Origin: Candidatus Heimdallarchaeota archaeon
GTDB lineage: Archaea; Asgardarchaeota; Heimdallarchaeia; Heimdallarchaeales; Kariarchaeaceae
Reading direction: 5' to 3'
Length of the DNA stretch: 32,000 bases
NCBI GenBank assembly: GCA_030149205.1
Contig: JASBSB010000003.1
Span: 120,001 to 152,000, forward strand
Under the pieces are notes generated by a model. The model ran no database searches, was not told the DNA's origin, and was given only the letters and a program-made list of their open reading frames with translations. Within the stretch, counting starts at the first letter, position 1. Each line of letters starts with the position of its first letter. Shown here one piece after another: positions 2,380 to 20,958 of the stretch. A program made the translations under genes and the position numbers.

Positions 2380-3084
2380 GTGAAGCAGCATGAAAGCAAC
2401 CAAAAATTTAATGATACTTGGTTTAGGGACTTTCTAATTATAATTTTGTTAGCCCCCATATTATCAGGATTTTTTTACCTATACCAAGAGAACACCTCAT
2501 TCGGATTGATAGAGGGGAATGTATTTCGTGCCTCTCGAATGTTAATAATATATGTCATTCCGACACTAATTTTCGCCAGAAGACATGCCATACCATTCAA
2601 AAATTTAGGATTTAGATTTGACAAACCGAAGTTAAACTTGTTGGTTTCACTTATTGGAGGGATAGTATTATACTATATTGCTGGGTTGGTTTTTGTAAAA
2701 GACAATATCTTTTTTGGTGGTTGGAGTTCTGTTTCAGAGATCGATGCTTGGACTTCCCTGGGGTTAATTGGAATAATGGCGGGAGTTACAGATTATTGGA
2801 CAAGGGGATTTATTCTGTTATCACTTACAAGGAAATACAACTATTATGTTGGGATAACAGTTCAAAATTTAACTTGGTTTATAATACATATTTACGAGAT
2901 CGTTTTATTAATCCCATTTATAGGTTTAACAGGGGCTATATTACTAACATTATTCCTTGGCATAGTTGGAGATATTATTGCACTTGAGAGTGAGAATATT
3001 ATTGGACTTATTTTTGGTCACATACTCTTGAACATGATGGTTATGTTAACAGCAAGAGGGGTTGTAAATTTTGTTTTCTTCTAA
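2380..3084 (+). CDS. CPBP (CAAX protease/Abi) family intramembrane glutamic protease-like protein
   Basis: Multi-TM protein with motif 2 WFIIH and motif 3 GHILLN. The motif 1 position reads GVTDYWTRG instead of EExxxRG. Confidence 0.75.
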   Translation: MKQHESNQKFNDTWFRDFLIIILLAPILSGFFYLYQENTSFGLIEGNVFRASRMLIIYVIPTLIFARRHAIPFKNLGFRFDKPKLNLLVSLIGGIVLYYIAGLVFVKDNIFFGGWSSVSEIDAWTSLGLIGIMAGVTDYWTRGFILLSLTRKYNYYVGITVQNLTWFIIHIYEIVLLIPFIGLTGAILLTLFLGIVGDIIALESENIIGLIFGHILLNMMVMLTARGVVNFVFF

Positions 3085-3117
3085 TTACCTCTTTCAAAAA
3101 ACCTTGAGGAACCTACC

Positions 3118-3861
3118 TTAAAATTTAATTTCCATGTCATCTTCTGCAAGTTGAAAGTTCTTTTGAAAAGAAAGTGTATTTGAACTTACACTTGAGTCAA
3201 CATGAGATACAAAAAAAGAATTTGGTCTATTAATCCCCACCTCTAAAAGGTCTTTAATGGTTGTGTGATTAGGTATCACAAGATCAAAAGTACTTGCTTC
3301 ATGAATTACAATCTTACAAGTCAATAAAACATTGAGACTTTCTAGCACCAAAGATGTATCTCCTGAGTATCCCAAGCTGAAAGCGCCTTTAATTGCAACC
3401 ATCCGAGCGTTAGCAGTGTGTTCTGCCCTTAGAAATTGGAAGTGGAGAGAGAAAAGATTATATTCAGATCCTGGCTCGGTCTCGATAAATTCATAAGTTT
3501 CTGGTAATACTTCTGCTTCATCTTGAGAGTATATTGTTTCACAAATTGTGCGTAGAAATTTTTGGGTACCAACCGGACATATCAATTTGATAGGGTTACT
3601 CAACTTACTTATCCATTTATTGTCTAGGACAAGTAAAGCTAAACCTAACATGTGGTCTGGATGTAAATGGCTTATATAAATCAGGTCGAGGTCTCCTAAA
3701 GAATATCCTTTCTTATGTAGAGCAGGGAGTGTTGATGGCCCACAATCCATCATCATGAGTCTGTGTTTTCCTTTATCCTCAAATTCAATAAGGTAAGAGG
3801 AGTGTCTTCTTCCATCATGGCCAAAGGCATTACCTGATCCTAAAAATATTAATTTTGACAA
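3118..3861 (-). CDS. Metallo-beta-lactamase fold hydrolase, RNase Z/BN-like
   Basis: FLGSGNAF, MDCG, HLHPDH (HxHxDH), AEH, YSGDT, HEAST and SH motifs. Confidence 0.85.
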   Translation of the reverse strand: MSKLIFLGSGNAFGHDGRRHSSYLIEFEDKGKHRLMMMDCGPSTLPALHKKGYSLGDLDLIYISHLHPDHMLGLALLVLDNKWISKLSNPIKLICPVGTQKFLRTICETIYSQDEAEVLPETYEFIETEPGSEYNLFSLHFQFLRAEHTANARMVAIKGAFSLGYSGDTSLVLESLNVLLTCKIVIHEASTFDLVIPNHTTIKDLLEVGINRPNSFFVSHVDSSVSSNTLSFQKNFQLAEDDMEIKF

Positions 3862-3974: not shown

Positions 3975-5051
3975 TTGATGACCGATGTCAACTTTGAGGA
4001 ATATTACTCAAGACATTTCCCCTTAAAATCCCTGGGTAAACTTAACCAACAATTACTCCAAGAAAGTCATGTGCTCATAGCTGGTGTTGGTGGCTTAGGA
4101 ACTCATTCAGCAGAACTATTAGCTTCTTTGGGTGTTGGTGAACTAACCCTTGTGGATTTTGATGTGATTGAGGCCTCAAATCTACCTAGGCAGGTTCTCT
4201 ATACTGTTGATGATATTGGTAAAGCAAAAGTTGATGTTGCACGAGAAAGAATCGAAAAAAGAAATCCCTTTATAAAAATCAACACATCCACCTATTCCAT
4301 TGATGGATTATCTATTCAAGACCTAATTCAAGGAGTTGATATAATTGTGGATGGATTAGACACTTTTTCGACTCGGAAAATAGTACATTATCATGCCCTT
4401 AGAAACAATATCCCATTTGTGTTCGCTGGTGCTACCGGTGAAAGTGGAAATCTTATGAGCTTTGATTTTAAGAACAACCATCCTTGTATGGAATGTGTGT
4501 TTGGTGATGTTCAAGATAATAAGAATTTTTCTTGTGAGGTTAGAGGAATTCATCCTATAATCTTGAATTTAATTGCTTCTGCACAGGCCTTAGAGGTGCA
4601 GAAAATGTTACTTGGACAAGACCCCAACTTTTGTGAGTCACTCCTTCTTGTTGATCTTGAAAAGTTCAAATTTACAAGAGCAAAGGTAAAGAAAAATCCA
4701 ACTTGTCCCACTTGTTCTAAATATGAATTTAATGATCCCACCAGTAGAACGTATGATATTGAAACAAAATTAGGGAAGGTTCATATTACTTCGTTATGTG
4801 GACGTGGTGCTTTTATTTTTAAACCACAAAATAAAATGGATATCAATCTTAAGACTATCGTTCAATTTTTGGAGGAGACAAACTCAACGATCAAAGTAAG
4901 AGGAGCAAGTGCGGTATCCTTTGTGAAAGAGAATATAGAGGTAAGTGTGCTCAATTCTGGAATTGTTACCATTCGTAAAGTTAGTAACCTTAAACTTGCT
5001 GAATATATATATGAAGGTTTAGTTGATTCTATGTTAAGTGCAAACCTATAA
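3975..5051 (+). CDS. ThiF/MoeB/E1-like adenylyltransferase with C-terminal LCGR-type extension
   Basis: GVGGLG nucleotide-binding loop, SNLPRQ, Zn motifs CMEC and CPTC, catalytic-loop SCEVRG, and a C-terminal SLCGR...GIVTIR domain. Confidence 0.9.
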   Translation: MMTDVNFEEYYSRHFPLKSLGKLNQQLLQESHVLIAGVGGLGTHSAELLASLGVGELTLVDFDVIEASNLPRQVLYTVDDIGKAKVDVARERIEKRNPFIKINTSTYSIDGLSIQDLIQGVDIIVDGLDTFSTRKIVHYHALRNNIPFVFAGATGESGNLMSFDFKNNHPCMECVFGDVQDNKNFSCEVRGIHPIILNLIASAQALEVQKMLLGQDPNFCESLLLVDLEKFKFTRAKVKKNPTCPTCSKYEFNDPTSRTYDIETKLGKVHITSLCGRGAFIFKPQNKMDINLKTIVQFLEETNSTIKVRGASAVSFVKENIEVSVLNSGIVTIRKVSNLKLAEYIYEGLVDSMLSANL

Positions 5052-5347: not shown

Positions 5348-6913
5348 TTGAAAAAGCCCAGTAACCAAACGTTAATCTCCGTGGTTTGGCTCACTATTGT
5401 AGGCTTCTTATTAATTTATTCAATGTCGGACATTCTGAAAATTACATCAGTACTCGAATTTGTTCAATATTTTGTTTTACTTCTTGTATTATCTCAGATT
5501 TTAGCGTTAATTGTTTCAGTGATCTTCCCTTCATCTGAAAGAAAGAAATTACACAGCTCCAGTTCTTCAGAACTCAGTAATATTGATGTTATAGTCCCAA
5601 TCAGGTCTGTTGACCCCTCAGTTTTAGAGTTAACACTCAAAGGAATTAGAGATTCAGACTATCCTCAAGAGTTAATCACTTTGGTTATTGGAGATGACAC
5701 CCCCAATATAAAATTGAGCGAAATTTATTCTAAACTTGCTACTACATACAAGGCTAGATACATTTACTTACCAGAAAACAAAAAATACAAGGCAGGTATG
5801 GTAAATTATTGTCTTCAGGATCTTGACTCCCCCCTTGTATGTCTATTAGATTATGATCAGATACCGACAACGAACTTTTTCAAAATTTGTATACGTGGAA
5901 TACAAGATGAGGATGATATAGCATTTGTTCAACTGATAAAAAGGTTCAGAGACCTAAAATCTATATTTAATAAATGGTCTGCATTATTATATCTGCAATT
6001 TTTTGAAGCTATGCAACGAACTAAAAATGAAAGAGGAACGGTATTATTTGCCGGTTCAACTGGCTGTTTTAGAAGAGAATACCTCAATGAAGTGGGTCTA
6101 TTTTCAGAAGAGACCTTTACTGAAGATGCAGACACATCAATAAAACTCATACTTAAAGGATATAGAGGCTTGTATCTGGATAGTGTAGGGTCATATGGAA
6201 CAGTGCCAAAGAATTATCAAGATCAAATCGCACAGCTTTGGCGTTGGTCACACGGGGGTAGTCACAGCCTTTCTCTTAGGGGCACTCTAATATTAAGGTC
6301 AAAAGAGATAAATCTTTCACAGAAAATTGACTTGCTTGCTACAATCGGAATCACACCATTGTTGGTGTTAATTTATGTATACACTCTAGCAGTTGCGGTT
6401 CTAGTTAATTTTAGATTGGATTATCAAAGCCCAATCCTGCTACCCTCTTCAAGATATTCTGTCTCAATTGCAGGAATTTTACCTTTGCTTGCAATAACGA
6501 CGTACTTACTTGTAGTCAGTTTGGCTTACTATGAAGCCAGAAAAGATCCAGAATTGGAGAAAATCTTTAAATGGCGTTATCTACCAATATTCACTTTGAT
6601 TGGAATTTCAAGCAATGTGTTAATACTCAGCTCGGGAATTACAGGGTTTTTAAGAATATTAGGACCGAACTCTAGATATGGAACATGGAACAGAAAATTT
6701 AACATTTGGTTAGAATCGGGAATTCTTGCTATTATTGGAATATTGGGGATCTATTTCTCAATCTTAATTTCAGATAATTCGAACTGGTTGTTCATATGTT
6801 TAATTTCTGTTTCTTTTGTTGTACCAATCATTGTTACAATTCTCTCTAGCTTACATCTGAAATTTAAGAATGAAGTTTCCAATTCACTGGATACAAAACA
6901 ACACAATTTTTAA
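5348..6913 (+). CDS. Processive GT2 glycosyltransferase (cellulose-synthase-like)
   Basis: D...DD, KAG, DYD (DxD), FAGS, TED and QLWRW (QxxRW) motifs, with N- and C-terminal TM helices. Confidence 0.9.
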   Translation: MKKPSNQTLISVVWLTIVGFLLIYSMSDILKITSVLEFVQYFVLLLVLSQILALIVSVIFPSSERKKLHSSSSSELSNIDVIVPIRSVDPSVLELTLKGIRDSDYPQELITLVIGDDTPNIKLSEIYSKLATTYKARYIYLPENKKYKAGMVNYCLQDLDSPLVCLLDYDQIPTTNFFKICIRGIQDEDDIAFVQLIKRFRDLKSIFNKWSALLYLQFFEAMQRTKNERGTVLFAGSTGCFRREYLNEVGLFSEETFTEDADTSIKLILKGYRGLYLDSVGSYGTVPKNYQDQIAQLWRWSHGGSHSLSLRGTLILRSKEINLSQKIDLLATIGITPLLVLIYVYTLAVAVLVNFRLDYQSPILLPSSRYSVSIAGILPLLAITTYLLVVSLAYYEARKDPELEKIFKWRYLPIFTLIGISSNVLILSSGITGFLRILGPNSRYGTWNRKFNIWLESGILAIIGILGIYFSILISDNSNWLFICLISVSFVVPIIVTILSSLHLKFKNEVSNSLDTKQHNF

Positions 6914-6935
6914 ACTTCAAAGAGACAGAACTTTA

Positions 6936-7355
6936 ATGGCAAAGAAAAAGGCAAGTGCCAAGGAGAAAAAAATTAAGGTTAAACCTGTCAAATGTAAAAA
7001 ATGTGGTCATTCCTTTATGCCGCATGAGGCTCAACCTAAGAAACAATGGACCCTAGTATCACCAATGCCAGACAAAGATGGAAATGTGACGATAACTATG
7101 ATGGCCAGTTGGGACTGTCCAAACTGTGGAAAGAACATTACTGGATCCATGGGGAAAACTAAAGGTGATCAAACAGGTCCATCAAAGAAAGAGTTGATCG
7201 ATGAGAAACTTGCAGCAAAAAGTAACTTTAATATCAATGAATTCGCAAAAAGTTTGAAAGTATCTGAAGAAAACCTCTCTAAGATTCTTAAGGTTCATAT
7301 CAAAAAGGGGAATGTTAAAGCGAAAATAGTAGATTCAGAATTTATTTTTGAATAG
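6936..7355 (+). CDS. Basic Zn-ribbon (Cren7-like) protein fused to a C-terminal winged helix
   Basis: Likely start is ATG 6936 (MAKKKASAK), because the ORF-track start overlaps the GT2 gene. Contains CKKC and CPNC, a PKKQWTLVSP segment like Cren7 PEKVWALAP, and a C-terminal INEFAKSLKVSEENLSKILKVHIKKGNV wHTH. Confidence 0.7.
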   Translation: MAKKKASAKEKKIKVKPVKCKKCGHSFMPHEAQPKKQWTLVSPMPDKDGNVTITMMASWDCPNCGKNITGSMGKTKGDQTGPSKKELIDEKLAAKSNFNINEFAKSLKVSEENLSKILKVHIKKGNVKAKIVDSEFIFE

Positions 7356-7369
7356 AGGGAATTAATTCT

Positions 7370-8137
7370 ATGAGACTATCCAAGGATGTTAACCAAAAAC
7401 TCATAAAGATGAACAAAAATTTTGTGTTCCCCTTGGAGGAGGAAACTTTGAAGAAGCTAACCAATCACGAACACGATTGGTCATCAGTTGAACTAAGAGG
7501 GGTCCTAAGATTATTCTATCTGAATTCCCTTTTCAATATACCTTTGGAAATTTATCACTTTCCGAATGAAATCAGAACTAAAGAATTAGCTGGTTATTTT
7601 GAGGGGTACAAGCAGACAGATATAGAGATCTTTGAAAAGGAAGAATTAGCAATCATTTCCAACTATTTTAAGAGCTCAAGATTGTACGTGGATAGGATCA
7701 CAGCGCCTATCTATTCAGTTGATAGATATTTTTTGTTCTATAAACTTCGAATATTATTGACACCATCACATTTTGATTTCTCACAAAGCAAACTATTTAC
7801 AACTTTGCAATCCACACTTGGATTGAAACAGGTTAGAATTAAATCTCTTAATAACTCTAAATTTTATGGGTCTAATGATTTAATAACAAAATTACGTGTT
7901 GCCACTCTTCAAGAAATTGCTGGGTTTCAGGGCCTTGATTATATAGAATTCAAGGGAGAAAGTGTGAAACATGGCCTTCGGGGACTTCAGGTTCGACAAG
8001 AAATTAAGGTCAACCTTGAAAATATAGGTCCAAAAATTATTGTTGGTGACTCTGACCTTACCCTGAAAGTTGGTTCAACACTTGAGATTCATTCTCTTAA
8101 GGGAATTCAGAAAGCCCATGAACTTTTGATCACATAA
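7370..8137 (+). CDS. Hypothetical protein
   Basis: 255-aa ORF starting 14 bp after the preceding gene; no family recognised with confidence. Confidence 0.7.
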   Translation: MRLSKDVNQKLIKMNKNFVFPLEEETLKKLTNHEHDWSSVELRGVLRLFYLNSLFNIPLEIYHFPNEIRTKELAGYFEGYKQTDIEIFEKEELAIISNYFKSSRLYVDRITAPIYSVDRYFLFYKLRILLTPSHFDFSQSKLFTTLQSTLGLKQVRIKSLNNSKFYGSNDLITKLRVATLQEIAGFQGLDYIEFKGESVKHGLRGLQVRQEIKVNLENIGPKIIVGDSDLTLKVGSTLEIHSLKGIQKAHELLIT

Positions 8138-9955: not shown

Positions 9956-11503
9956 GTGGAAAACTCTGATAAGATCCTAGAGTTATTTTCAAGAGGGAAA
10001 AAGCTAGCTAAAGAAAAAATGTATGACGAGGCAATTGCAAACTTTCTTGATGCTGCTGAATTAACAGTACAATATGCAAAAATAAGTACAGAGGAAGACA
10101 AACATAGATATGAACGAATCGCAAATATGATAATTGAAGAGATAAAAGAAACTAAGGCAATAAAGCACCTTACAACCACAAAATCAGTAGAATCTCATGA
10201 AATCGGGAATGATTTAAAACCTGAAGATATTCAGATGAAGGACGAACCTGTTGTTAGTGATTCATCAGCATTGGAAAGAGAAACAAGCAAAGAAAAAGTT
10301 TTGATCCCTGATGTTTTTGAAAATTATGTTCTTGCCCCAAAACAAGACATAGACATCCCACTGGGAGAGACCAAGGAAGGAATCTATCATTGGAAACCAA
10401 GTGAACTAATGAACGGTATAGTGATGATAACTGGAGGAAGTGGCTCTGGGAAGTCTGATACTTTAAAGAGCTTTGCAAAGGAGCTTACAGAAAGAGGATA
10501 CCCAGCGTTGGTGATTGACCTTCATGGTGATTTGACTCTTGAAATTCCAAAAATCGATATTAATTTCACAAGCAAGTTCGGGATTAACCCTCTAGAACTT
10601 TTTTCTGTTTCTTCTCTTGATGGGGGTCCAGAACCTCAGATAAATCGATTAGTCCAGTTATTCGATGATGCTGTTGAAGATGGTTTCTCTTCCACACAAC
10701 TGGCATTTATAAGAAATCTTCTAGGGTATGCCTATCAACAGGCACATATTATACAGGGAAATCCAGAAACTTGGAAGAATAGTCCACCTACCTTTAAGGA
10801 TGTCAAAAACATAGTTTCAACCTATCAGACACTGATAGAGATTGATCCAGAAAATTCGTACTTGGTCTCTCTTAACACAGCAACCAACGCTACACTGAAT
10901 GCTGTAATAAACCGACTTTCCCCAATTTTAAACCATCCAGCTTTTGTGACTAATGAAATGATACCAATCGGAAAATTAACTGAGTTTCCTTTGAGGATTA
11001 ACTTAAAGTCAATTCATACGGTTGATATGCAATATATTGTGGTTGACTCGATTTTGCACCAGCTGTTTTCAAGGTTAAGGTCAAAAGGACATGTTGAGGG
11101 AAGTTCTGATGAGGAAAGATTTCGAATGTTTGTTTTAATTGACGAAGTCAAAATACTTTCAGGGAACAGGGGAGACATTAACGATTCATTTAACATCTTA
11201 AACAGGTTAGCATCTGAGTCAAGAAAATTTGGGATAGGAATGATAGTTGCAAGTCAGGTAATACGACATTTTGGGAGAGATATTCGTTCAAATAGCGCGA
11301 CAAAGATAGTATTACGAGCAATGGACAATGAAGAGGCGAGAGTCAATGCAAAAGAGATTGAAATTGATAATAAATTACTCAAAGCCTTAAGAAAGCCAGG
11401 TTTAGGTTACATCAGGACGACCAATGATATTGTTGCAAAGAAAATACAAATCTTTCCTTTTGTTGACAGACCAATCCATATAGAGGTCCTTGAAGAGGAG
11501 TAA
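9956..11503 (+). CDS. HerA/FtsK-superfamily (DUF87-like) ATPase with N-terminal MIT-like three-helix domain
   Basis: Walker A GGSGSGKS, VIDLHGD, Walker B LIDE, arginine finger ESRKFG, ASQ. The N-terminal 70 aa (FSRGKKLAKEKMYDEAIANFLDAAE...KHRYERIANMIIEEIK) match the MIT pattern. Confidence 0.85.
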   Translation: MENSDKILELFSRGKKLAKEKMYDEAIANFLDAAELTVQYAKISTEEDKHRYERIANMIIEEIKETKAIKHLTTTKSVESHEIGNDLKPEDIQMKDEPVVSDSSALERETSKEKVLIPDVFENYVLAPKQDIDIPLGETKEGIYHWKPSELMNGIVMITGGSGSGKSDTLKSFAKELTERGYPALVIDLHGDLTLEIPKIDINFTSKFGINPLELFSVSSLDGGPEPQINRLVQLFDDAVEDGFSSTQLAFIRNLLGYAYQQAHIIQGNPETWKNSPPTFKDVKNIVSTYQTLIEIDPENSYLVSLNTATNATLNAVINRLSPILNHPAFVTNEMIPIGKLTEFPLRINLKSIHTVDMQYIVVDSILHQLFSRLRSKGHVEGSSDEERFRMFVLIDEVKILSGNRGDINDSFNILNRLASESRKFGIGMIVASQVIRHFGRDIRSNSATKIVLRAMDNEEARVNAKEIEIDNKLLKALRKPGLGYIRTTNDIVAKKIQIFPFVDRPIHIEVLEEE

Positions 11504-13093: not shown

Positions 13094-15316
13094 ATGAAAT
13101 TAAAGGAATTAAAAATAGAAAATATTCTTGGATTTCTGGATCCAACTACAATTAAAATTTTAGATGATCTAATATATTTTGTAGGAGAAAATGGATCTGG
13201 TAAAACTAATCTTACTCGTATAATAAATTTTATAATACAGAATTTTGAGCGAGGGTCAGTTGAATATCATAAATTTAGGTTTTGGAATCCCAAAGAAAAA
13301 GCGAATTTTGAAATGATATTTGAACTAAATCAAAATGAACAAATTCTTTGGTCCAAAATAATTAGTTTAAAATTTATAATACTCTTTTCGCATCAATCTT
13401 CTGAACTTAAAATTACGAATGTAGAATTACTTTATAAATTCTATAACTTGTTAAAAAGAGAATTTAATAGCCAAAACGTTTTCAAATATATGATAATTTC
13501 AGGTGAAACAGATGAAAAATCACCTGAAACCATGAAATTTTATGCATCATTTTTAGATGGTAAGAAGAAACTTAAAACTTATATTGATATTTTTGGGATT
13601 GATTCAATCTTTTTTACAAATATACCGCAAATACCACAAGTTCACCAATCTGTGAGGACAATTTATGAAATAAAGCAATTTAATCTAATCTCTTTAAATG
13701 ATGTAAACAAAGTCTTATCAAATCTAGAACTACCAAACTTAATTGGGGGTAATTCAGAAGATGATATTGTAATAAATATTATGAATGGTATTCAAGGAAT
13801 TTTAAGACAAGAAAATAAAGATAATTTAGAATTTTTTTTTCGGACCAATGATTTAGATTATGTTACATTAGAGAAATTTAGGGCAATTAAAGAGTTTAAG
13901 GAAGATATGTTTTCACTTATCGAATTTTTCAGATCGAAGATTCCAAGATTCGACGATGAGAGAAATAATATTAATTTTTATCAATTGATAAACAGAATAT
14001 TAAATAGCAGCATAGATATATTGGTGGAAGATAGGGGATTAATAACAAATTCGGGATATTTTAGTTATTTACGTGGATATACTAAAAACTTAGTTCTTTC
14101 AACTTGTATTAATGATCTAATGAATATGAAAACTTCAATCGATCCAGTTAAGAGAAATCGGTACAATAAAATCAAAAAATCATTTCATAAGTTATTCAAT
14201 GTAGAATTTGAGCTTATCTACGAATATAAAATTCAAGAAGCTGACAATCTTAATCATGACCTACCAATGATGATAAATTTACAGAGTTTGGGAAGAAAAA
14301 TTAATGAATATGATTACATTATTGAATCGATAAACGATAAAAAATTCTATGGGGCTTTTCCAATGGTTGTTTTTATCACTGAAGATGAAACACAGTTTTC
14401 CTTAACCTCTGCACCTGGTGGTTATATTGAAGGTATAATGGTTCTTTACGCTCTTTTTAATTCAGAATCCAACACTGTTGTTTTAGATGAACCTGGAAAC
14501 AGATTTCATACGAAATATTTAATTAAACTAAAGGATTTAATTATTAAAAATCGTAAAAATATCGAGAAAACTTTAATTATCTTTACTCATAGCAAGGAAC
14601 TGATTGATGAGCAAAACTTAAATAATGTAAAAAGAATTATCAGAAAGAATAACAAATCTATTATCAAAAATGTTAATGAATTTATTGATAAATTAAATAT
14701 AAACCAACAAAATAAGATGATAACAAATCTTATTGAACCTTTTTTCTTAGATTTATTCTTCGAAAATAAGGTATTGTTTGTTGAAGGAAAATGGGATTCA
14801 AGGGTATTAACTGCATTAAATTACATATTAGAAAATCCTAAAAATATGAATTTTGATAATTTAAATCCATATGGAAAGATTGTACATACTATCATTAGGT
14901 GTGAAGGAAAGGGTTCATTACTACGAGCTGTACAAGTTTGTAAATTTTTTGAAATCGAATGGTTTGCGATAGTTGATTTTGATGCTATTTGTCAAAATAA
15001 ATTAAAAGAAAGTCAAGAGGTATGGAAAATTCTCGAAGTAGATGGTGTGGAAGACTTAAATGAATCTGTGTTGAGTGACAGCAATACAACCGCAACCCCA
15101 ACAGAAATTCTTGAGTACTGTGAAAATCATAAAATATTTAGTTGGGAAGGTGATTTAGAGAGTTCACTCTCCACTAATAAAGATAAACTTAAGCAGATGT
15201 CAATAACAGAATTAATTGAAAAATTAGAAGAGGAGATTAAAAATAAAAATAAGGAAATGATTAGATTAATTGACTTTCTTAAAGCTAAAGAGTTGTTAAG
15301 AGAACGCATATCATGA
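13094..15316 (+). CDS. OLD-family ATP-dependent nuclease (ABC ATPase + TOPRIM)
   Basis: Walker A GENGSGKT, signature-like SAPGG, Walker B VLDEP, H-switch FTHS, TOPRIM FFENKVLFVEGKWD and DFD, and a C-terminal DLE. Confidence 0.88.
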   Translation: MKLKELKIENILGFLDPTTIKILDDLIYFVGENGSGKTNLTRIINFIIQNFERGSVEYHKFRFWNPKEKANFEMIFELNQNEQILWSKIISLKFIILFSHQSSELKITNVELLYKFYNLLKREFNSQNVFKYMIISGETDEKSPETMKFYASFLDGKKKLKTYIDIFGIDSIFFTNIPQIPQVHQSVRTIYEIKQFNLISLNDVNKVLSNLELPNLIGGNSEDDIVINIMNGIQGILRQENKDNLEFFFRTNDLDYVTLEKFRAIKEFKEDMFSLIEFFRSKIPRFDDERNNINFYQLINRILNSSIDILVEDRGLITNSGYFSYLRGYTKNLVLSTCINDLMNMKTSIDPVKRNRYNKIKKSFHKLFNVEFELIYEYKIQEADNLNHDLPMMINLQSLGRKINEYDYIIESINDKKFYGAFPMVVFITEDETQFSLTSAPGGYIEGIMVLYALFNSESNTVVLDEPGNRFHTKYLIKLKDLIIKNRKNIEKTLIIFTHSKELIDEQNLNNVKRIIRKNNKSIIKNVNEFIDKLNINQQNKMITNLIEPFFLDLFFENKVLFVEGKWDSRVLTALNYILENPKNMNFDNLNPYGKIVHTIIRCEGKGSLLRAVQVCKFFEIEWFAIVDFDAICQNKLKESQEVWKILEVDGVEDLNESVLSDSNTTATPTEILEYCENHKIFSWEGDLESSLSTNKDKLKQMSITELIEKLEEEIKNKNKEMIRLIDFLKAKELLRERIS

Positions 15317-19995: not shown

Positions 19996-20958
19996 TTATA
20001 ATGTGAGAGGTCTGTCTCGTATTCCATCAGCTGTAATGTAGAAAATTTCTTCAGATTCTGGTTTTCTTGGGCTGTCGAACAGTCTGGCAATTCGAGCAAG
20101 TCCAGGGGATTTTCTGAGAAGTATTCGTGTTTGTGGTCGATGAGCCCAAGCTTGTCCAAGAGCTGGTTGTGACGCACCACCTGTGGCAAAATCATCGACC
20201 CGAGCAACTACCTGATTGGTTACGACCACCGCCATCCCATAGGTAAACGCCAAAGTAGCCAATAGTGACCCTTGTTGCATAATTTTCTGCTGTCTCTCTG
20301 GTAACCTTTCTTTATCAATATAATCAGTTCTAAAGTGTGCAGCCAAGGAATCAACGATAACAAGTTTGATGTTTTCCTCAGTTGCAATTTCTGCTACTTT
20401 TTTAATCAGCTTAAGCTGGTGGTCTGTGTCCAAGGCTTTCCCGACATAAATATTTCTGAGAACCTTTTGTGGATCCATCTCGTTACCTAAAGCCATTTCA
20501 GCAACTCTTTTTGCTGAGAAGGTGCCCTCAGTGTCAATGTAAAAAACCTTTCCCTCAAGTCCCCCTCTATCCTTTGAAAGTTGAGCATTTACAGCAAGTT
20601 GAAAACAGAGTTGTGTTTTCCCTGAAGCAAAGTTACCAGATAACTCTGTTATCTCTTTCTCCCAGATACCTCCTTCTAAAAGAGAATCTAAAGAATTTGA
20701 ACCAGTGGTCAATCTGTTTCTATTGAGCTCATCCTGAAAAATCTCATCAGCTGTCATTGGTTGGATACCGGTTTCTTCTCTGGCAAGTTCTATCATGCTT
20801 TCTGCGAGGTCTATTCCTATATTGAGTTCTGCTGCCAGATCCTCTGGAAAGGACAAAAGAAGAGATTTGACTGATTTGTAACCAGCTTTCTCCATCTTCT
20901 TTCGGATTTCGTCAGAAATTATTGGAGGAAACTCTTCCTTAACTTTCTTCTTTGTCAC
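19996..20958 (-). CDS. radA: RadA/Rad51-family recombinase homolog, probably a paralog rather than the main recombinase
   Basis: N-terminal HhH-like domain, TTGSNSLDSLLEGG, Walker A GNFASGKT, YIDTEGTF, Walker B VIVDS, VVVTNQV. The L1/L2 loops and FxxA motif are altered. Confidence 0.9.
   Translation of the reverse strand: MTKKKVKEEFPPIISDEIRKKMEKAGYKSVKSLLLSFPEDLAAELNIGIDLAESMIELAREETGIQPMTADEIFQDELNRNRLTTGSNSLDSLLEGGIWEKEITELSGNFASGKTQLCFQLAVNAQLSKDRGGLEGKVFYIDTEGTFSAKRVAEMALGNEMDPQKVLRNIYVGKALDTDHQLKLIKKVAEIATEENIKLVIVDSLAAHFRTDYIDKERLPERQQKIMQQGSLLATLAFTYGMAVVVTNQVVARVDDFATGGASQPALGQAWAHRPQTRILLRKSPGLARIARLFDSPRKPESEEIFYITADGIRDRPLTL

Follow-up and report, generated by a model that had tools for sequence, protein, structure and literature searches.

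A Cren7-related zinc ribbon joined to a winged helix in Heimdall-class Asgard archaea

Does an Asgard archaeon carry a relative of the crenarchaeal chromatin protein Cren7, and what would such a protein be likely to do there? The question is raised by a 32,000-nucleotide stretch of contig JASBSB010000003.1 (positions 120,001 to 152,000) from a Candidatus Heimdallarchaeota archaeon of the Kariarchaeaceae. This whole stretch is called the window here, and an open reading frame (ORF) at its positions 6936-7355 on the + strand encodes a protein of 139 amino acids (aa). Published work has placed Cren7 and its zinc-retaining relatives in Crenarchaeota and Bathyarchaeota alone (Kaur, Iyer, Subramanian & Aravind 2018, PMC5906684). 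A previous examination of the letters of this DNA, referred to below as the sequence-only reading, had proposed the protein as a Cren7-like chromatin component. Based on sequence comparison and structure prediction, we place the 139-aa protein in the Cren7 superfamily together with the long-loop, zinc-retaining paralogs of Cren7, in a new phylum and in a new domain fusion; it is not a canonical Cren7.

Domain layout and conservation

The translation of the ORF agreed exactly with the sequence-only reading (MAKKKASAKEKKIKVKPVKCKKCGH...QPKKQWTLVSPMPDKDG...WDCPNCGK, then a helical C-terminal domain), and the layout described there, a Lys-rich tail, a four-cysteine zinc ribbon and a winged helix, was found as read. 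The parts of the gene and its product are listed below by their positions in the window.

6936..7355, + strand: whole coding sequence, 139 aa plus stop (protein P0001), from the ORF translation and homologs
6936..6989, + strand: Lys-rich N-terminal tail, residues 1-18; 8 K/R against 1 D/E, isoelectric point (pI) 10.5; predicted to be disordered
6990..7163, + strand: zinc-ribbon, Cren7-like beta domain, residues 19-76, by hhalign and HMMER homology; predicted local distance difference test (pLDDT) score of the model, 74
6993..7007, + strand: first putative zinc knuckle, C20-K-K-C23-G, in place of the Cren7 beta1/beta2 turn
7041..7055, + strand: predicted strand beta3, K36-Q-W38-T-L40, corresponding in hhalign to Cren7 K24, W26 and L28
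7059..7097, + strand: predicted beta3-beta4 hairpin, S42-P-M-P-D-K-D-G-N-V-T-I-T54, nearly invariant, a signature common with the crenarchaeal zinc-ribbon paralogs
7116..7133, + strand: second putative zinc knuckle, C61-P-N-C64-G-K66, in place of the Cren7 beta4/beta5 turn D-P-E-T-G-K, with K66 at the position of K48
7164..7181, + strand: flexible linker, residues 77-82; pLDDT <50 for residues 77-80
7182..7352, + strand: C-terminal winged helix, residues 83-139, pI 9.3, from the secondary structure of the model and VIA matches

Nineteen close homologs were found at 40-66% identity, all of which share C20, C23, C61, C64, K36, W38, P43, P45, D46, K47, G49, T52, I53, and T54. Because these residues are invariant across the 19 homologs, the frame is not a chance ORF. 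In the 42-sequence set used for counting residue conservation, the four cysteines C20, C23, C61, and C64 were likewise invariant (42/42). The protein is basic as a whole (pI 9.7). Its AlphaFold2 model, built from the family alignment, had a pLDDT of 69 and a predicted template modeling score (pTM) of 0.36, the latter pointing to two independent domains. Residues 1-11 of the tail were modelled at pLDDT <50, and the length of the tail varied from 0 to ~25 residues among the homologs. Recoding was considered for copies flagged with internal stops and was rejected, as these stops proved to be boundary stops.

Relationship to the Cren7 superfamily

An HMMER profile of 19 family members was run on 1.8 billion representative proteins. 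It matched stand-alone crenarchaeal and bathyarchaeal proteins of 70-110 residues (E 3.6e-12 to 3.5e-09), two of which, from Fervidicoccus fontis and Ignisphaera aggregans (E 3.6e-12 to 4.4e-10), carry the name 'chromatin protein Cren7' in UniRef or NCBI. The core of the matched proteins reads C-P-x-C-G...K-T-W-x-L-V-S-P-x-P-D-x-x-G-R-I-T-I-T-V-M-G-x-x-x-C-P-x-C-G. The crenarchaeal zinc-ribbon family was found at 80 genomic loci, in Sulfolobales, Desulfurococcales, Pyrodictiaceae, Ignisphaera, and Fervidicoccaceae. These proteins are called Cren7Znr-type here (represented by WP_014557275.1 from F. fontis, ADM27988.1 from I. aggregans and the 80 loci), and we equated the set with the published Cren7Znr, whose exemplar is APE_2454.1 (PMC5906684), by the description in that paper and not by accessions. 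Five of the genomes also carry a canonical Cren7 at another locus, scoring 99-114 bits against the Pfam Cren7 family PF11520, which has a gathering score of 25 bits. Because canonical Cren7 sits elsewhere in the same genomes, the crenarchaeal zinc-ribbon proteins are paralogs of Cren7. In addition, a sample of 121 Thermoproteota genomes yielded four-cysteine proteins of ~50 residues (loci L137-L140) that pass the Pfam Cren7 cut-off with 47-58 bits.

We then compared the Asgard N-terminal domain by hhalign with these groups, using 87 sequences for the crenarchaeal zinc-ribbon paralogs and 29 for the cysteine-less Cren7 proteins. The match was 99.9% (E 2.6e-31) to the crenarchaeal paralogs and 97.4% (E 1.2e-11) to the Pfam-positive four-cysteine Cren7 proteins, and the latter two groups matched each other at 99.2%. 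With the cysteine columns masked, the Asgard domain still matched the crenarchaeal paralogs at 99.5% (E 2.3e-23), and it matched the cysteine-less Cren7 proteins alone at 45% (E 2.2e-4). Reversed controls gave E 0.27-0.93 for the Cren7 sets, with E 0.4-0.9 in the comparison with the cysteine-less sequences, and E 0.0093 for the Cren7Znr set. By these alignments, the four-cysteine Pfam-positive proteins bridge canonical Cren7 and the long-loop clade. By way of the four-cysteine intermediates, homology of the N-terminal domain to the Cren7 superfamily is thus well supported; its direct connection to the chromatin protein itself is weak.

A maximum likelihood tree on 61 columns, a short alignment that leaves the deeper branching order unsettled, put the Asgard and crenarchaeal zinc-ribbon proteins into one cluster apart from Cren7 with a Shimodaira-Hasegawa-like approximate likelihood ratio test (SH-aLRT) value of 99; the Asgard proteins lay on one side of a branch with an SH-aLRT of 71. 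The claim of a Cren7-like protein was therefore borne out at the level of the superfamily, by HMMER, hhalign, and the predicted fold, and failed for canonical Cren7, since the protein clusters with the long-loop paralogs. The Cren7 motifs quoted in the sequence-only reading are those found in the Cren7 genes fetched here, and the alignment with Cren7 that it had proposed holds for both the K-x-W-x-L segment and the second turn.

No curated Pfam or NCBIfam profile reached its cut-off on the 139-aa protein, the matches being sub-threshold zinc-ribbon noise. The whole genome gave no match to PF11520 at E<=0.001 or at E<=10, whereas a Sulfolobus control and the five crenarchaeal genomes scored 99-114 bits. 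A single-sequence search and two profile searches of the PDB sequence library returned nothing real. The designed Kelch 'SAKe' proteins that appeared in the PDB profile searches (summed E 1e-8 to 1e-9) were rejected as spurious, because the short W-x-x-V-[SA]-P-M-P hairpin motif resembles a blade motif and was summed over six blades.

Predicted fold of the N-terminal domain

The N-terminal domain was modelled separately (residues 9-80; model m70cb535843f9) from a 79-sequence alignment without any Cren7 sequence, with a pLDDT of 74. When the model was compared by VIA-align with 48,161 representative chains, Cren7 took the first rank (4r55_A; Z 4.3; root mean square deviation, rmsd, 2.8 A; 47 of 53 residues aligned). 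In a second look, Cren7 structures occupied ranks 1-11 (Z 4.3-5.0, rmsd 2.8-3.4 A, 47-53 of 53-60 residues, 19-23% identity), and the best of them gave Z 5.0 at an rmsd of 2.8-2.9 A over 52 of 56-60 residues with 21% identity. NrdR zinc ribbons formed the next fold class (Z 3.6-3.8). Foldseek ranks 1-8 were also all Cren7, at E 0.06-0.3 and with TM scores of 0.51-0.59 normalized to Cren7. Among solved structures, Cren7 is the nearest fold, and the model contains its small five-stranded SH3-like beta fold. The Cren7-like fold that the sequence-only reading had presupposed was thus present in the model as the top match of both VIA-align and Foldseek.

The putative DNA-contacting face and a proposed mechanism

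K24, W26, and L28 of Cren7 make up a DNA-contacting face with an intercalating wedge. L28 inserts from the minor-groove side and bends the DNA into a kink of ~50 degrees, K24 and K31 touch the DNA, and the interface is flanked by K42 and K48 (PMC5042384, PMC8927968). The hhalign correspondence pairs K24 with K36 (conserved in 41/42 sequences), W26 with W38 (42/42), L28 with position 40 (I, L, M, F, or V in 41/42), and K48 with K66 (38/42). Because K36, W38, and position 40 alternate along one strand, they face the same side. The beta3-beta4 hairpin is ~6 residues longer than the APKGRKG loop of Cren7, a difference that appears as gaps in the hhalign alignments.

On the combined sequence and model comparisons, DNA binding by the 139-aa protein is likely, and a role in chromatin is speculative. 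We favor a two-module protein in which the zinc ribbon would most likely serve architectural DNA binding and the winged helix would act as a second module, a proposal whose chances we judge to be evenly balanced. According to this proposal, zinc would hold the two hairpin turns together, a job done in Cren7 by hydrophobic packing, and the three-stranded sheet would sit in the minor groove of the DNA. K36 and K66 would touch the backbone as K24 and K48 do in Cren7, and W38 with the hydrophobic residue at position 40 would form a wedge equivalent to W26 and L28, by which the DNA would be bent and unwound. The Lys-rich tail would add non-specific affinity. The winged helix would make a second DNA contact, resulting in bridging, or would provide a docking site for a partner protein, and the protein could act either by coating the genome or at particular sites.

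The C-terminal winged helix

The AlphaFold2 model of the C-terminal domain has helices at residues 84-93, 100-106, and 111-123 and a beta hairpin. It matched winged helices with VIA Z values from 9.3 to 6.1. The best match was the winged helix of DDRGK1/UFL1 (Z 9.3), and the domain also matched the PCI winged helix of the COP9 signalosome (CSN; Z 8.2) and the DNA-binding winged helices of BirA, PurR, and NiaR (Z 7.6-7.8). The same three-helix bundle and beta hairpin wing are seen in the DDRGK1/UFL1, PCI, and MarR/HTH_11 winged helices. No Pfam family reached its cut-off on this domain, with FeoC at E 0.014 and E3_UFM1_ligase at E 0.069.

A zinc ribbon followed by a winged helix-turn-helix (HTH) could also belong to a sequence-specific transcription regulator, with a layout like that of MqsA, NrdR or TFE-type proteins. 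The rank of the NrdR zinc ribbons as second-best fold class of the N-terminal domain, the weak likeness of the C-terminal domain to FeoC- and DeoR-type HTH domains, and a sub-threshold match to TIGR03830 are in favor of such a regulator, but every regulator match lies below its family cut-off and is far weaker than the homology to the Cren7 superfamily. The family keeps 40-66% identity across classes with only a few paralogs, without the usual paralog expansion and variable recognition helices of regulators, and its most conserved surface is the beta domain rather than a recognition helix. A regulator of this kind is therefore improbable. The MqsA-type antitoxin family itself (CxxCG_CxxCG_HTH, TIGR03830) was rejected as an identity for the protein at 26.5 bits against a cut-off of 61.8 (E 4.5e-06); the match is confined to the linker, the second knuckle before it and part of the helical domain after it.

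Distribution and chromatin background

Of the 301 genomes sampled from the phylum, 95 carried intact copies, usually a single one, with two matches in ~10 genomes. Named members come from Kariarchaeaceae, Heimdallarchaeaceae, Heimdallarchaeota AB_125, and Hermodarchaeota metagenome-assembled genomes (MAGs). The numbers of genomes with the protein were as follows, by sampled family (f).

f1, 9/10; f2, 27/29; f5, 21/21
f7, 2/2; f21, 5/5; f24, 5/7

In the large Asgard families f11 (1/76) and f14 (2/68), all matches were weak and confined to the winged helix, and f17 gave none (0/19). The protein family is conserved in most Heimdall-class genomes and in some other Asgard lineages, and every full-length Asgard copy surveyed carries the winged helix. 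A crenarchaeal-type zinc-ribbon Cren7 paralog with 66% identity over 70 residues was also seen on a contig of a MAG labelled Methanobacteriota (L077:1003-1212), beyond the otherwise observed range of the family, a copy that could reflect a binning error or gene transfer.

The genome of the window, which is 93.5% complete on 12 contigs, gave no match at E<=0.001 to PF00808 or PF00125 (histones), PF09123 (DUF1931), PF01918 (Alba), PF00216 (HU), PF05854 (MC1) or PF11520 (Cren7), and control genomes responded. PF00808 was distributed over the sampled families as follows.

f1, 2/10; f2, 3/29; f4, 1/3
f5, 21/21; f11, 66/76; f14, 68/68

PF00808 was found in 7 of 43 sampled genomes of the order to which the window belongs, making it histone-poor, and DUF1931 gave borderline matches only, in part of f2. 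A cultured Heimdall-class strain has been reported to lack canonical histones (10.64898/2026.07.02.735847). Because the order appears largely histone-less and none of the known archaeal chromatin-protein families listed above was found in the genome, the 139-aa protein is a candidate for part of the missing chromatin. That it is a principal chromatin-organizing protein of this histone-poor order is unlikely, in our estimate. If true, the Asgard archaea, which among archaeal phyla stand closest to eukaryotes, would possess a non-histone packaging system drawn from the same zinc-ribbon stock as crenarchaeal Cren7. Strict mutual exclusion between the protein and histones was considered and rejected, as most sampled genomes of f5 have 5-12 histone genes (range 2-12) and the protein is found in all 21.

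Small ribosomal proteins, too, typically combine a basic tail with a zinc ribbon, and the winged helix is reminiscent of eS25, so an RNA-binding or ribosome-associated protein was considered. The protein is small, basic, and conserved, and its structural matches include a ribosomal winged helix (9e7f_BW, Z 6.4). There are weak zinc-ribbon matches to eS31/S27ae and L32 (E 0.006-0.2), and the JGI label of a bathyarchaeal relative is 'predicted RNA-binding Zn-ribbon protein involved in translation (DUF1610 family)'. However, the genome has its own eS25 elsewhere, and the codon usage of the gene is unlike that of the ribosomal proteins of the genome. The Asgard and crenarchaeal profiles match no chain of the PDB library beyond noise, although the chains of the crenarchaeal ribosome and RNA polymerase are expected there. 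A divergent eS25 or other ribosomal protein was rejected on these three grounds. In addition, the gene lies outside any ribosomal gene cluster, and the full-length protein was not found in f11, f14 or f17, which is odd for a core ribosomal protein. Any RNA-binding or ribosomal role is accordingly very improbable.

Architectural DNA binding or docking of a partner

Several results weigh against architectural DNA binding in the manner of Cren7. The structural scores are modest, with Z 5 at best and Foldseek E values of 0.06-0.5; modest scores are expected for a domain of ~55 residues, and the two methods are consistent. A search of the protein with the Pfam Cren7 profile, the check suggested along with the sequence-only reading, returned no match even at E<=10, and the hhalign match of the unmasked domain to cysteine-less Cren7 alone was weak (11%, E 0.0026). 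On the putative DNA-contacting face, the equivalents of Cren7 K42 and R51 are not conserved, being D60 and, in most members, T69. The hairpin SPxPDKxG-x-TIT is almost invariant from Asgard archaea to Crenarchaeota and includes an invariant Asp, which fits a specific partner better than a non-specific DNA contact. The codon usage of the gene was at the 72nd percentile on a ribosomal-protein scale, and at the 62nd among short genes; on the same scale, six of the eight ribosomal proteins of the genome were at or above the 98th percentile (leave-one-out). As this is unlike ribosomal proteins, there is no sign of very high expression, though the codon-usage evidence is weak, given the shortness of the gene and a small reference set (1,247 codons). 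The protein is not simply a histone substitute, because the histone-rich f5 keeps it. Finally, the C-terminal domain resembles the protein-binding PCI and DDRGK1 winged helices at least as well as DNA-binding ones, and proteins of 140-157 aa from sister genera combine this winged helix with a DnaJ J domain (PF00226, E 1e-27).

G145:C19:17123-17314, for example: J-domain/winged-helix proteins P0048, P0049, P0050, P0054, and P0074, in sister genera of the same family

These J-domain fusions suggest, from sequence, that the winged helix is a portable targeting module.

Much of this would suit a tether rather than a packaging protein, in which the zinc ribbon would hold DNA or another conserved ligand and the winged helix would dock a partner, with a role in one specific process, for instance chromosome segregation or cell division. 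The winged helix of the Asgard proteins would then replace the acidic C-terminal tail of the crenarchaeal ones as the partner-binding end. Segregation or division roles have been predicted for Cren7 relatives with intact zinc ligands, in a study that also reports fusions to CdvA-like and FtsZ domains (PMC5906684). No cell-division gene lies nearby, either in the window or beside the crenarchaeal counterpart. The best matches of the winged helix are protein-binding, with the PCI domains of COP9, eIF3, and the proteasome lid at Z 7-8 after DDRGK1/UFL1 at the top, and its distant sequence matches include PCI-domain proteins, but the scores of MarR/HTH_11-type DNA-binding winged helices are nearly as high. 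The J-domain fusions are typical of a targeting module, the long hairpin is conserved to an extreme degree, as if for a specific ligand, and low copy number with ordinary codon usage fits a low-abundance factor. The presence of a conserved gene for a 255-aa protein immediately downstream also speaks for a tether; its conservation is limited to the order of the window and one other lineage. Taken together, a low-abundance tether to a specific partner, the main rival reading, appears possible but doubtful, and architectural DNA binding by the zinc ribbon remains the reading that we favor.

Start codon, putative promoter, and neighboring genes

An upstream in-frame ATG at 6870 gives a longer frame that overlaps the preceding glycosyltransferase gene. 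Because every homolog opens with a Lys-rich, MAKKK-type N-terminus, the start codon of the 139-aa protein gene is likely at 6936. The following elements were read around it.

6907..6914, + strand: TATA-like box TTTTTAAA, read from sequence, centered ~26 nt before the ATG
7355..7359, + strand: GAGGG, Shine-Dalgarno-like, read from sequence, 11-15 nt before the next ATG (7370)
7370..8137, + strand: downstream 255-aa gene, same-strand neighbor starting 14 nt downstream, in a conserved neighborhood

The TATA-like box shares letters with the stop codon that ends the glycosyltransferase gene upstream. A position ~26 nt upstream of the ATG is the usual archaeal place for a TATA box, and the spacing between box and start suggests transcription of the gene from a promoter of its own, into a leaderless or near-leaderless mRNA. 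The GAGGG motif suggests co-transcription with the downstream gene.

The 255-aa gene lies directly or almost directly 3' of the gene in all seven loci from the order of the window (7/7) and in one locus of another class, and gene neighbors differ in the other lineages. Its product has no Pfam or NCBIfam match, and a homolog search of 5.8 billion proteins found four relatives besides itself. At the crenarchaeal zinc-ribbon paralog loci (L022-L101, gene at ~3001-3300), a signal peptidase gene (S26) follows on the same strand in 75/80, an enolase gene lies divergently upstream in 64/80, and a topoisomerase IA gene lies convergently downstream in 46/80; these neighbors gave no functional lead.

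Elsewhere in the window are a HerA/FtsK-like ATPase gene (9956-11503, + strand; DUF87, TrwB_AAD_bind) and an OLD-family nuclease gene (13094-15316, + strand; AAA_21 and OLD-like TOPRIM), a pairing often seen in defense islands. RadA is encoded at 19996-20958 (- strand) and a ThiF/E1-like protein at 3975-5051 (+ strand).

Comparison with known systems

We found no description of the Asgard family or of its winged-helix fusion in the literature. The sequence-only reading had suggested that a zinc-bound version of Cren7 with a basic tail and a second DNA-binding module would be an unusual chromatin component in an Asgard-like genome. Zinc-bound relatives of Cren7 have already been published (PMC5906684), and what is new is their presence in the Asgard phylum and the fusion to a winged helix.

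Cren7 (PF11520; Sso6901; PDB 3KXT, 3LWH, 2JTM) is an abundant crenarchaeal chromatin protein. In the Asgard domain, the strands follow the same order, the zinc knuckles fall where Cren7 has its two hairpin turns, and both proteins have a basic N-terminus. In contrast, Cren7 has no zinc ligands, a shorter beta3-beta4 hairpin and no winged helix, and it belongs to another phylum. The four-cysteine Pfam-positive Cren7 homologs have CPxCG...CPxCG knuckles and a K-T-W-x-L-A-P core comparable to those of the Asgard proteins, but they have a short Cren7-type loop (APKGRK), a length of ~50 aa and no C-terminal extension or winged helix.

The Cren7Znr-type proteins have the four zinc-ligand cysteines at the same beta1/beta2 and beta4/beta5 turns, the same K-T/E-W-x-hydrophobic-V-S-P-x-P-D-x-x-G-R/N-I-T-I-T-x-M core with the long beta3-beta4 hairpin, and the same basic K-x-K-x-G stretch after the domain. 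They differ in being stand-alone proteins of ~100 aa that end in an acidic tail (...DLDEIL.EEE) with invariant Asp and Glu, where the Asgard proteins have the winged helix. The crenarchaeal form coexists with canonical Cren7 in five genomes, whereas none was found in the genome of the window, and its gene neighborhoods are unlike the Asgard ones. With this family, the Cren7 superfamily reaches into the Asgard archaea in a domain architecture that is new and is kept across whole classes. The family also offers a way into the function of the crenarchaeal Cren7Znr-type paralogs, and these are open to Sulfolobus genetics.

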